In this document: in pieces, positions 38,173 to 41,766 of the stretch
How positions within the stretch are numbered: the first letter of the stretch is position 1
Layout: each line of letters opens with the position of its first letter
Assembly: GCA_052033505.1 (NCBI GenBank)
Contig: JBPOJN010000020.1
Coordinates: 7,888-71,887, forward strand
Direction of reading: 5' to 3'
DNA: 64,000 bases
Source: Myxococcota bacterium
GTDB taxonomy: Bacteria > UBA10199 > JACPAL01 > GCA-016699445
The notes under the pieces: model-generated
Seen by the model: only the letters and a program-made list of their open reading frames with translations
The model's database searches: none
Told to the model about the DNA's origin: nothing
Program-made: the position numbers and the translations under genes

Positions 38173-38261
38173 GCCGCATACCGGCGGTCTTGACCCGCTT
38201 CGCCTAGTTTCGCCCAGTTTCAGATTGACACTTTTCTTCCGGCCCTGCTACTCGCGCTGGA

Positions 38262-38426
38262 AATTAATATTCCGCGTGAGTGTATGGGAAGGAGGTGTGA
38301 ATCCTCCGTGGTCCCGCCACTGTGATAGGTTTGAAAGATCGGCCGTGAGTCACTGTTCCTCTTGAAATCAGGGAACGGGAAGGCAAGGCCTCCTTCAAGA
38401 AACCTTAAGCCAGGAAACCTGCTCAT
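38262..38426 (+). ncRNA. Cobalamin (AdoCbl) riboswitch
   Basis: gGGAAgGAGGUGtgAAtCCtCCgtGGtCCCGCCACUGUgAtagg ... gtCACUG ... GGGAAcGGGAAGGC ... taAGCCAGGAAACCUGCtc reproduces the conserved cobalamin-riboswitch core and B12 box. It sits in a 290-nt leader upstream of the lipoprotein operon, and a CCTCC tract can pair with the GGAGG SD of the first gene. Confidence 0.8.
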
Positions 38427-38464
38427 CGCGACAACTAGGATATTCCCCGAGGAGGGAGAGGCCG

Positions 38465-39631
38465 ATGAGATACTTTTCTTATTTTGTAGCGTTCGCGCTG
38501 CTCGCAACCGCCGGTTGCGGGAATGTCACCACCAACACGAATAACCCGAATCCTTCTTCCGGGTCGCAAGACGACGAAAAGGATTTTCTCGCCGTGCTGG
38601 GATCCAGCTTCACCGATCCCGCGGGGACACTGGGTTTCGTGCCCGTCGAAGAGCCGCGGCCAGCGACGACAAACGTACAAACCACGCATTCGGACGCCAT
38701 CGTGAGGTCCTATGGTGATCTTTTGTATGTGGTGAACCGCAAAGGCGCGGACAACATCCAGGTCGTCGACCCCGCGCAGAATTTCGCGGTCACGAAGCAA
38801 TTCTCGATCGGCGCGGGTACGAACCCCCAAGACATCGTCGTGACTTCCGCGACCAAGGCCTACGTCGCCCTCTATGAACCGGAAAGCGTGACCGACAGTA
38901 CGGTCGTGGATGACATTCTCGTCGTGAATCCCCAAGCGGGAACGATCACCAACACCATCGATCTCACGGACGCGACGGCTAATGACGGCGACCGTTTCGC
39001 GCGTGTGGCCGATCTTGTCCAGGCCGGTTCGAAGATCGTGGCGCTCTTACAAGATCGTCCCGGCGATTTTTTCCAATCCCCGGACCAACCCGGCCGGCTC
39101 GTCGCGATCGACACGGCGACCGACGTCGTGACCGGCGTGGAAACTCTTTCCTGCTTCAATCCCATCTCGATGGCGCTTTCAGAAACGGCGGGCCGTATCT
39201 ACGTCGCTTGCGCGGACTTCGCAGGCACAGGTAGTGCGACCGGCGGCATCGAAGTCGTCGATGCCGCGACGTTGCAAAGCTCAGGGATTTTCGTGACCGA
39301 CGAAGCCCTCGGCGGATCTCCGGGCGACATCGAAGTCTCGGGCACTCAGGGATTCGTGACCGTCGGTGTCTTGAGCCCGACGTTTGAATTTTCCAGCTCC
39401 GTGGTATCTTTCTCTCTCGATACGGCCGGTCCCGCAAACGTACAACCTCTCTATGAAGGCGCCGATTACATCCAAGACATCGCCGTCGCGCCGAACGGTC
39501 TTTTGGTCGTCGGTGACCAGACTCCGACCGTCAACGGCGTGCTTTTCTTGAATCCCGATACCGGCGCCGTCGTCGACGGACCGATCACGATGGGACTGCC
39601 GCCGTCGTCACTTGCGTTTTACCGCAAATGA
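38465..39631 (+). CDS. Lipoprotein with YVTN-type beta-propeller repeats, first gene of the B12-riboswitch operon
   Basis: Lipobox LLATAGC. Repeated ~40-aa units (LLYVVNRKGADNIQVVDP..., AYVALYEP..., IYVACADFAG...) typical of YVTN beta-propellers. GGAGG SD present. Confidence 0.6.
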   Translation: MRYFSYFVAFALLATAGCGNVTTNTNNPNPSSGSQDDEKDFLAVLGSSFTDPAGTLGFVPVEEPRPATTNVQTTHSDAIVRSYGDLLYVVNRKGADNIQVVDPAQNFAVTKQFSIGAGTNPQDIVVTSATKAYVALYEPESVTDSTVVDDILVVNPQAGTITNTIDLTDATANDGDRFARVADLVQAGSKIVALLQDRPGDFFQSPDQPGRLVAIDTATDVVTGVETLSCFNPISMALSETAGRIYVACADFAGTGSATGGIEVVDAATLQSSGIFVTDEALGGSPGDIEVSGTQGFVTVGVLSPTFEFSSSVVSFSLDTAGPANVQPLYEGADYIQDIAVAPNGLLVVGDQTPTVNGVLFLNPDTGAVVDGPITMGLPPSSLAFYRK

Positions 39632-40680
39632 TTATGAGGAAGTTTTTCCCCGTACTTCCGGTCTTTTTACTTCTCGCGGCGTGCGACGCGGCCGGTTTAC
39701 GACTGAATGAGACCGCACCCCCACCGCCCAACGCCTCGGAGTCCGGCGGTAATTCGTCGGTGCTCGTGCTCCAGCCAGCCTATTTCGAAGTCGTCGGCAC
39801 CCAAGTCACGCGAACGATGCATCTCCTGTCTTGGTCTGGATCCGGGGACGATGGGGGTTTTCAGGATCATGAGACGGCATCGAGCGTGACTTGGTCCGTC
39901 GACGATCCCGCCGTCGCTATAATCGACGCCGATGGCAATCTTCGCACGCTCGGCGTCGGCGAGACTTTCATTCGCGCGAGCGAAGGCGATCAAGAAGCCG
40001 TGGCGCACGTCACCGTCGTGGCGGCACTAGAACCGGCGACCGAACCGCCGCCGACTCCGTCCATTCCCGATGGCGACCCGACCGCCCCACCATCTGCTGA
40101 GGTTTGTAGCCCCGTTTCTTCCAATGCCTTCGCCGCTCGCGTGATCTCTCACCGCACGGGAACCGGCGGCGGTTTTCAGGAAGAGAAATTACCCGGCATC
40201 GTTCTCAGCGGGCCTCGCGGCGAAGGAACCTATCAAGGCGGTTACGATACGTATTCTCTCGGCGTCGGCGGCGAGATCGTCTTGGAACTTGCCCAAACCG
40301 TCTGCGACGGTTCAGGCCCGGATTTCACGGTGTTCGAGAATGCATTTCGCGTCGGCACTTTCGGCGTTTTCGTCGAGCCAGGTCTCGTCAGCGTCTCGGA
40401 AGATGGAATGACTTTTAAAGATTTTCCCTGCGCCCTCACACCGCCGTACGCCGGCTGCGCCGGACTGCAGCCGGTTCTTGCGAACGTGGAATTCAACGAC
40501 ATCAACCCTCTCGATCCGGAAGTTTCGGGCGGAGACGCTTTCGATCTCGCAACGATCGGAATCACGAAAGCGCGATTTATCCGCGTCCGAGATTCCAACT
40601 TGGCCTTAGGCCCTCTGGGACCGGGGACGGATGGTTTTGATTTGGATGCAGTCTCAATTTTAAACGGAATTAAAAACTAG
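39628..40680 (+). CDS. Lipoprotein with Big_2-like Ig domain
   Basis: Lipobox LLLAAC. SVTWSVDDPAVAIIDADGNLRTLGVGETFIRA fits a bacterial Ig-like group 2 domain. 4-nt overlap with the upstream gene. Confidence 0.55.
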   Translation: MIMRKFFPVLPVFLLLAACDAAGLRLNETAPPPPNASESGGNSSVLVLQPAYFEVVGTQVTRTMHLLSWSGSGDDGGFQDHETASSVTWSVDDPAVAIIDADGNLRTLGVGETFIRASEGDQEAVAHVTVVAALEPATEPPPTPSIPDGDPTAPPSAEVCSPVSSNAFAARVISHRTGTGGGFQEEKLPGIVLSGPRGEGTYQGGYDTYSLGVGGEIVLELAQTVCDGSGPDFTVFENAFRVGTFGVFVEPGLVSVSEDGMTFKDFPCALTPPYAGCAGLQPVLANVEFNDINPLDPEVSGGDAFDLATIGITKARFIRVRDSNLALGPLGPGTDGFDLDAVSILNGIKN

Positions 40681-40698
40681 AAAACTCGAGGAGATGTC

Positions 40699-41766
40699 AT
40701 GCAACCCCCACAATTTTCACGAAGAGGTTTTTTTCAGGGCTTAGGAAGTTTAGTCGGAGCCTCGGTAATCGGCTGTGCCGCAGAACCACAAACGTCGAAG
40801 ATCACTTTCGGCTACCAACAATACTCCCGCCTTTCGGCCCAGCACTCCGCAGGATTGACGGTTTCCAGCGGCCGATTATTGGCTCTTGCTGCACGAAACC
40901 AGGACCTCTCCAACGGTCTCGGAGATCGCAATCAAATGGTCGAAATGAGCTCTCTCGCCGATCCGCGCCCTTTCTTAAATTTACCGAATGAGGCCGGCCT
41001 CTTCGTCGGGGGAATGACGTTGGCCTCCCCCGATTCGGCATTTGTCACGGGCAATGCTCTTTACGAAGTGTCTTTAAGCACTCCGGTCGTCCGTCGTACC
41101 GTCCCCTTGGCCTCGGGCAACATGCGTTCCAATGGGTCTTTGAAAGTAGGCGATAAACTTTTTGTCACGGCGTCCCATCCTTTAAATCTTGCGGGCGCTT
41201 TGAACGTTTATGATCTCGGTCCCGACGGAACCATCGTCGGCGCCGGTCGCTCCGTTGCAACGGCAGGTGCAAATCCCACCGGCATCGCAGCGTCCGGCCC
41301 GGAAGTTCTCGTCCTGAACACGGGCGACTACGAATCAGGATCGATCGCTTATTTAAATTTTTTCGACGGGAACGGGCAAAAAACGCGGGATGCGTTGCCC
41401 TTAGGAAATATGACGGCGCAAAATTCGGGATCGATCGCCGTCGGTCAGAATATCGCCGTGATCGGGACATCGGACCGCAGTGGGCGCTTGGTGTTCGTGG
41501 ATGTGAATGCAGGTGAAGTCATCGATTCTCCCGTCTCCATTCCGGGCCATAACTTCCACTCCAGCGTCGTCATCGGAAACATCCAAGGCCGCGATTACGT
41601 GTTCGCCACGGATTATAATTCCGGATCGGTCGCAATTCTTGATATGGAGGATCGTACCGTCATTGCCACGTTGGCCCTGCCTGAACGCGCCGGACCCGCG
41701 CTCTTCCACGAAGGCGCGTTGATCCAAACAGTGCCCAACGCCGCCTTGCGCGTTTTCGTTTCGTAA
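40699..41766 (+). CDS. Tat-exported lipoprotein, beta-propeller-like
   Basis: Twin-arginine signal SRRGFFQGLGSLVGASVIGC with lipobox Cys; repeated strand-rich units. Confidence 0.55.
   Translation: MQPPQFSRRGFFQGLGSLVGASVIGCAAEPQTSKITFGYQQYSRLSAQHSAGLTVSSGRLLALAARNQDLSNGLGDRNQMVEMSSLADPRPFLNLPNEAGLFVGGMTLASPDSAFVTGNALYEVSLSTPVVRRTVPLASGNMRSNGSLKVGDKLFVTASHPLNLAGALNVYDLGPDGTIVGAGRSVATAGANPTGIAASGPEVLVLNTGDYESGSIAYLNFFDGNGQKTRDALPLGNMTAQNSGSIAVGQNIAVIGTSDRSGRLVFVDVNAGEVIDSPVSIPGHNFHSSVVIGNIQGRDYVFATDYNSGSVAILDMEDRTVIATLALPERAGPALFHEGALIQTVPNAALRVFVS

Follow-up and report, generated by a model that had tools for sequence, protein, structure and literature searches.

A cobalamin riboswitch-controlled operon of three lipoprotein genes in a Myxococcota bacterium, a likely BtuG/BtuH-type accessory module for corrinoid uptake

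Here, we explored a 64,000-nucleotide stretch of DNA from a Myxococcota bacterium (assembly GCA_052033505.1, contig JBPOJN010000020.1, positions 7,888 to 71,887 of the forward strand; hereafter, the window, whose own coordinates are used throughout) and, within it, an operon of three lipoprotein genes, denoted A, B and C, that is preceded by a cobalamin riboswitch. Our analysis indicates, with a probability of roughly 0.7, that this operon is an accessory module of the type represented by the lipoproteins BtuG and BtuH, which is repressed by vitamin B12 and serves the TonB-dependent uptake of corrinoids, with the transporter itself being unlinked in this lineage. The operon and its control region comprise the following features:

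38225-38230, + strand: TTGACA, a possible, weakly supported -35 hexamer about 30 nucleotides upstream of the aptamer, found by direct reading
38261-38440, + strand: cobalamin riboswitch aptamer (RF00174), 74.5 bits at E 1.7e-16, the gathering score being 31.5
38441-38464, + strand: expression platform, the 24 nucleotides between the aptamer end and the ATG at 38465
38465-39631, + strand: gene A, 388 amino acids, lipobox LLATAGC
39628-40680, + strand: gene B, 350 amino acids, lipobox LLLAAC; its start overlaps the stop of A
40699-41766, + strand: gene C, 355 amino acids, SRRGFF twin-arginine motif and lipobox VIGC
41737-41764, + strand: weak terminator-like hairpin (5-base-pair stem, 3 G-C pairs) with a T-rich tail, overlapping the last part of gene C

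The three genes are co-directional, with a gap of 18 nucleotides between B and C, and the hairpin overlapping gene C is a weak candidate for the end of the operon. An initial annotation of this stretch, made from the sequence alone, had proposed that the operon encodes three exported lipoproteins, which is borne out by the lipoboxes in A, B and C and by the twin-arginine translocation (Tat) motif in C.

In an Rfam scan of the whole window, RF00174 was the sole family above its gathering score, and the match is full length, covering model positions 1-189 of 189, which places the element within the family; a custom covariance model scores it at 120.6 bits. The same annotation had recognized an adenosylcobalamin-type riboswitch in this leader and proposed the covariance search that has now returned the full-length match; the four motifs it quoted were all located (38286-38304, 38313-38325, 38377-38384 and 38408-38422), the last of them being the B12 box. 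The aptamer further carries the peripheral extension typical of class I, and this class-I-type architecture suggests adenosylcobalamin as the predicted ligand. The segment 38173-38464, initially described as the leader, is the entire intergenic gap that separates the first ATG from an M20 peptidase gene (36733-38172). No good -10 hexamer accompanies the TTGACA at 38225-38230, which a consensus promoter scan did not report. The 24 nucleotides that separate the aptamer from gene A include a purine-rich ribosome-binding region, GAGGAGGGAGAGG, at 38449-38461, with the ribosome-binding site placed 9 nucleotides before the ATG and its GGAGG covered by a small hairpin. Because no plus-strand terminator-like hairpin was found in the stretch from the aptamer to the start codon of gene A, control by the riboswitch is most likely translational rather than transcriptional. 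By direct reading, the loop sequence CCUCU (about 38359-38363) complements AGAGG (38457-38461), and a kissing loop between the two is a candidate interaction. Overall, the element resembles other RF00174 riboswitches, for example, the Escherichia coli btuB leader, in its full-length match, B12 box, peripheral extension and position directly before the regulated start codon; unlike the btuB leader, it governs lipoprotein genes only, with no transporter or biosynthesis gene.

The AlphaFold2 model of protein A is a confident seven-bladed beta-propeller of about 28 strands (predicted local distance difference test score, pLDDT, 92.2; predicted template modelling score 0.87). The family is narrow, with 58 matches in the protein search, and scans against Pfam and NCBIfam yielded no model covering the protein, only sub-threshold repeat matches. 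Nevertheless, a profile of the A family searched against the sequences of the PDB retrieved nine distinct BtuG-type matches (8BMY, 8BMX, 8BN0, 8P97, 8OKV, 8PUJ, 8BAI, 8BAZ and 3DSM), with E values from 2.7e-9 to 1.8e-8; these include BtuG2 (8BMX/8BMY), BtuG3 (8OKV, 8P97/8P98) and an earlier apo structure, 3DSM (PMC10404256). The alignment with BtuG spans about 245 profile positions (119-365), or about five blades, and the remaining significant matches are FlgD-like domains, which are fused in some family members. Because the A-family profile matches the BtuG2 and BtuG3 structures, protein A is, so far as can be judged from sequence, a remote but detectable homolog of BtuG, with which it shares the seven-bladed fold and a lipobox, the sequence homology being apparent at the profile level only. 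Thus, the resemblance to BtuG that had been put forward as an analogy holds, and was understated: by the A-family profile, it is homology.

Protein B consists of an Ig-like domain (residues 44-131) followed by a C-terminal beta-sandwich (residues 165-350; pLDDT of the model 85.9), an architecture that resembles that of BtuH, in which Ig-like domains likewise precede a globular domain. The earlier description of B as a Big_2-like protein fits the Ig-like domain, which scores 22.4 bits, just below the Big_2 cutoff of 22.8 (Big_2 matches occur in 24 of the 78 B family members). No Pfam model covers this C-terminal domain (hereafter, the B domain) in B or in the 78 family members scanned. Among the matches listed in the protein search, the B domain has more than 2,200 relatives, many of them stand-alone lipoproteins of about 210 amino acids, which NCBI in many cases labels ‘cell surface protein’. 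Foldseek places the B domain of the model among discoidin/CBM32 carbohydrate-binding modules, and BtuH itself has a CBM32-like fold; HMMER detected no sequence similarity between BtuH and B, the Foldseek search with the B model did not recover BtuH, and a search of PDB sequences with the B profile hidden Markov model gave nothing useful. The precomputed assignment of some B homologs to PF26918 was discarded, that family being merely an intimin-type Ig domain.

Protein B also matches NCBIfam NF033170, the family of the Leptospira lipoprotein LIC_13355, at 50.2 bits (E 2e-13) in its C-terminal domain (40105-40677), and its homologs, among them P0021, P0037, P0040 and P0080, give similar sub-threshold matches of 40-49 bits; E values range from 1e-10 to 1e-13. 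As the cutoff of this family is 120 bits, we rejected membership of B and consider it to contain a related domain. LIC_13355 has been investigated solely as a laminin- and plasminogen-binding adhesin (PMC11891782); our literature search found no link between this protein and B12, and a possible B12-related role of LIC_13355 has not been previously considered.

Protein C begins with a predicted Tat-lipoprotein signal, in which the stretch SRRGFFQG, read against the twin-arginine motif S/T-R-R-x-F-L-K, is followed by an h-region and the lipobox VIGC. Profile-profile comparison with hhalign detects homology between C and A (probability 97.9%, E 6e-13, 229 columns), and by this measure C is a divergent paralog of A, for which a propeller fold is predicted from that homology. 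With 2 relatives found by a word-indexed search and 32 representatives by an exhaustive search of 1.84 billion proteins, the C family is small and fast-evolving; Pfam and NCBIfam scans of C gave only sub-threshold matches and no family assignment.

The genomic context of related proteins connects the module to B12 transport. All homologous loci retrieved on the basis of protein identity (L002, L003, L004/L005, L006/L007, L008 and L089) have RF00174 upstream. The stand-alone A-B-C arrangement of the window is repeated in L003, L004/L005 and L089, and these modules share some neighbours, namely, PilZ (L003, L004/L005), NUDIX (L004/L005, L089) and alpha-2-macroglobulin (L089) genes. Transport genes join the module in other relatives. 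In L006, the riboswitch is followed by an A paralog, a TonB-dependent receptor, A and B, with TonB further downstream, and in L008, by a TonB-dependent receptor, an A::B fusion, C, BtuF, a 186-amino acid gene product, BtuC, BtuD and TonB; btuB-adjacent homologs of A occur in L006, L008 and L010. The transport genes of L008 score best as BtuF, BtuC and a corrinoid ATP-binding cassette ATPase, and the receptors of the related loci have TonB-B12 ranked first or second, in all cases below the curated cutoffs. In the 639-amino acid fusion of L008 (10001-11920), residues 9-404 match A and residues 447-636 match B, mirroring BtuG1 of B. thetaiotaomicron, a natural fusion in which a BtuH domain is joined to BtuG. 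As L061 (3721-5649) encodes a C::B fusion, the two independent fusions suggest that either propeller type, A or C, can partner the B domain. The Tat motif of C is kept in L003, L004 and P0180 and missing from the C homolog in L008. The proposal that Tat export of C reflects a folded protein loaded with its cofactor is therefore unsupported, all the more so since exporting B12 would defeat scavenging.

Within the window, tblastn with three TonB-dependent receptors and BtuF, BtuC and BtuD from the related operons produced no match, and Pfam scans of most window open reading frames of at least 200 amino acids revealed no Plug/TonB_dep_Rec, FecCD, Peripla_BP_2 or B12-dependent enzyme. Thus, the absence of a BtuB/BtuFCD transporter noted by the initial annotation stands for the 64-kb window but not for related genomes, where A, B and C reside inside riboswitch-btuB-btuFCD-tonB operons. 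Given this placement, A, B and C are best regarded as transporter accessories whose partner is unlinked in the window lineage, and the lack of a transporter is local, being a trait of a single lineage. This status comes close to one of the outcomes, lipoproteins that are ordinary accessories of a transporter, which the initial annotation had named as speaking against its own interpretation. Its idea of a capture module is supported; what had been viewed as an uncharacterized corrinoid-binding or scavenging module represents a distant branch of a known system rather than a new kind.

To place the module in a wider context, genomes were scanned with a B-domain profile, one genome per species. 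The B domain is present in at least 519 species genomes, and the counts that follow refer to the best 80 of these, almost all of them Myxococcota (Polyangiales, Sorangium, Cystobacter, Archangium, Corallococcus, Bradymonadales) or metagenome-assembled genomes labelled Deltaproteobacteria. A covariance model built from six riboswitch cores located a same-strand cobalamin riboswitch within 6 kb upstream of the B domain in 60 of the 80 loci (56 of 72 when loci with less than 2.5 kb of sequence upstream are set aside). A same-strand TonB-dependent receptor is encoded no more than 8 kb from the B domain in 28 of the 80 loci, an A-type propeller in 29 and BtuF or BtuC in 13, and 49 loci have neither a receptor nor BtuF/C in this range. 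With a riboswitch upstream in 60 and a receptor in 28 of the 80 loci, the B family, like BtuH, is encoded in B12 transport loci. Furthermore, 30 loci have a same-strand receptor at any position, and in 20 of these a propeller gene lies directly downstream of the receptor gene, the order of btuB and btuG. Two of the loci deserve separate mention. Positions 3953-12400 of L032 (Corallococcus praedator) hold three cobalamin-riboswitch matches, two B-domain genes, a receptor and an A-type propeller in about 9 kb, an apparent multi-riboswitch B12 locus that recalls operon 1 of B. thetaiotaomicron. In L054, a 74-nucleotide match to the riboswitch model (9399-9472, - strand, 59.6 bits) lies on the opposite strand beside a plus-strand riboswitch and could be either a fragment or an artefact of the model.

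BtuG has been reported as exclusive to Bacteroidetes (PMC6143338), and lipoprotein-capped TonB-dependent transporters have been described as apparently restricted to that phylum; homologs of BtuH have been reported mainly from Bacteroidota, with three additional cases in Firmicutes (PMC13616437). Our literature searches for BtuG or BtuH relatives in Myxococcota, allied lineages or elsewhere yielded the Bacteroides papers alone. Protein A shares with BtuG1-3 of B. thetaiotaomicron (PDB 3DSM, 8BMX, 8OKV, 8P97) the lipoprotein nature, the seven-bladed propeller and the profile homology (E of about 3e-9), and the genes of its relatives follow directly after that of a riboswitch-controlled btuB-type receptor, with some of the relatives fused to a BtuH-like domain; by contrast, gene A of the window belongs to another phylum, is not located beside btuB and is represented by no Pfam or NCBIfam model. 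Compared with BtuH (BtuH2, PDB 7BIZ; H domain of BtuG1, 8BLW), B has one Big_2-type Ig domain instead of three PKD domains, and its family is centred on Myxococcota and often consists of the bare domain of about 210 amino acids. The statement that BtuG is the only propeller lipoprotein to capture B12 is outdated, as BtuK1 also binds it (PMC13616437). BtuK1 and BtuK2 of B. thetaiotaomicron, in which PKD domains are combined with a seven-bladed propeller, constitute a second type of propeller lipoprotein in a B12 locus, paralleling the coexistence of A and C, with one of the two copies binding B12 and the other not. Unlike BtuK, C has no PKD domain and carries a Tat signal; no sequence link to BtuK was found, and C is related to A by hhalign. 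The B12-binding beta-jellyroll BtuJ/DUF4465 (PF14717), which occurs in riboswitch-controlled loci of several phyla (PMC13398666), is a secreted beta-sandwich like that of B; membership of B in this family was rejected, as no match was obtained at E values of up to 10 for B and up to 1 for its 78 relatives. Finally, XusB of Bacteroides (PDB 9HQE) is a propeller lipoprotein that serves a TonB-dependent transporter and stands near the top of the Foldseek results for the A model, but it binds siderophores, has no riboswitch link and shows no sequence-profile match to A.

We propose the following scenario for the operation of the module. When intracellular adenosylcobalamin is plentiful, it would bind the class-I-type aptamer and the ribosome-binding site of gene A would be occluded. 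When B12 is scarce, A, the BtuG-like propeller, B, with its Ig-like stalk and BtuH-like beta-sandwich, and C, the second, divergent propeller, would be made, C being exported in the folded state via the Tat pathway. Anchored in the cell envelope, the three proteins would capture corrinoids and pass them to a BtuB-type TonB-dependent transporter, presumably encoded elsewhere in the genome of this lineage. We infer corrinoid binding by A, B and C, their location at the surface rather than in the periplasm, and the capping of BtuB by A.

Several observations count against this interpretation. The top 50 Foldseek matches of the A model are generic propellers, XusB and YncE, and BtuG is not among them; the search, which matched seven-bladed propellers, is unable to separate BtuG from the others. 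Among the B-domain loci, 20 of 80 are without a riboswitch, and in the 7 that were rechecked with Rfam there is truly none. No TonB-dependent receptor is present in the 64-kb window, so that the adjacency to btuB that is characteristic of btuG, and is found for relatives of A, is lacking here and the partner receptor is hypothetical. Furthermore, in the window, L003 and L004, the lipid-modified Cys of B is followed by Asp at position +2, which is the inner-membrane retention signal under the sorting rule of E. coli and other Enterobacteria. This residue, together with the Tat signal of C, would be accounted for if A, B and C were periplasmic, B being anchored in the inner membrane and C arriving in its folded state through the Tat system, and served as holders or chaperones of corrinoids between BtuB and BtuFCD rather than as an extracellular lid. 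We consider this unlikely: the +2 rule is not universal, the operon of L008 already encodes BtuF, the receptor gene is immediately followed by that of an A homolog in 20 of 30 loci, which is the order of btuB and btuG, and BtuG, to which A is homologous, forms a lid at the cell surface (PMC10404256).

Still less probable, in our assessment, is a module without a dedicated transporter, whose lipoproteins would be released, for instance, on outer-membrane vesicles, and act as a sink for corrinoids, either shared or competitive. Such a function would explain the stand-alone operon in the window lineage and in many Myxococcota. In its favour, 49 of 80 B-domain loci have no receptor or BtuF/C within 8 kb, the stand-alone arrangement is conserved in the window, L003, L004/L005 and L089, and Bacteroides does load B12-binding lipoproteins onto vesicles (PMC13616437, PMC12751083). 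However, unlinked genes can serve a transporter, as with btuB and btuFCD of E. coli, which are themselves unlinked (PMC8941943), and close relatives hold A, B and C inside btuB operons. The least probable of the alternatives is that the proteins are regulated by B12 without binding it, acting as envelope enzymes or as carbohydrate-binding or adhesive proteins that, when B12 is limiting, might either remodel the envelope or process precursors of corrinoids. The discoidin/CBM32 neighbourhood of the B domain, the existence of enzymes among YncE- and lactonase-type propellers and the adhesin function described for the distant relative LIC_13355 would all be compatible with such a role, but the same CBM32-like fold is found in BtuH, A is specifically related to BtuG, and the recurrent tight operon linkage with btuB and btuFCD, as well as the propeller-B fusions, fit a role in transport.

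Extending the preferred reading of a BtuG/BtuH-type uptake accessory, we tentatively suggest, at somewhat less than even odds, that lipoprotein-assisted capture of B12 at TonB-dependent transporters is not confined to Bacteroidota, and that an ancient BtuG-type propeller combined with a B12-binding beta-sandwich so far lacking a Pfam family constitutes a second large branch of the system. In some lineages, including that of the window, this branch would have become a free-standing, riboswitch-controlled operon for corrinoid scavenging that includes a further propeller exported by Tat and may operate at a distance from the transporter, for instance, on vesicles when the cells prey or compete. 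Should A and B prove to bind corrinoids, capture and relay would be a strategy shared by Myxococcota and related bacteria of soil, sediment and groundwater, a new and very common family of B12-binding domains would be defined, and hundreds of ‘hypothetical’ and ‘cell surface’ proteins could be annotated. The small soluble domains, with their pink read-out, would offer a simple test system, and the question would arise of how bacteria with a predatory or social lifestyle compete for B12.

The surroundings of the operon show no island signature in base composition. A PilZ-domain gene lies near the riboswitch-lipoprotein module in the window (36015-36449), L003 (6190-6645) and L004 (7426-7881), and its conservation in these three members of the lineage probably reflects synteny only. 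Between the operon and the NUDIX gene, the window contains a strong 10-base-pair G+C-rich hairpin (42005-42027) and a DUF559 endonuclease-like gene (42045-42419), the place of which is taken in L004 and L089 by an M19 peptidase gene, suggesting a local insertion or replacement at 42005-42419. Four long open reading frames of 628-819 amino acids (5287-7173, 18760-21219, 48903-50861 on the - strand, and 56833-59028) had no Pfam match at E 1e-5. An acyl-CoA pathway cluster that includes an enoyl-CoA hydratase occupies 43597-60271, with the following genes:

45329-46501, - strand: mesaconyl-CoA hydratase gene
47206-48858, - strand: acyl-CoA dehydrogenase gene
50902-51891, - strand: HpcH/malyl-CoA-lyase-like gene
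58880-60271, + strand: acyl-CoA dehydrogenase gene

Classic versions of such acyl-CoA pathways rely on B12-dependent mutases, but no mutase was seen in the window. Upstream of the operon, a gene for a PBP1C-type penicillin-binding protein (22235-24316) is followed by that of a bacterial alpha-2-macroglobulin of 2045 amino acids (24325-30462), a pairing that is known, and in L089, the same alpha-2-macroglobulin gene is located just upstream of the A-B-C module.

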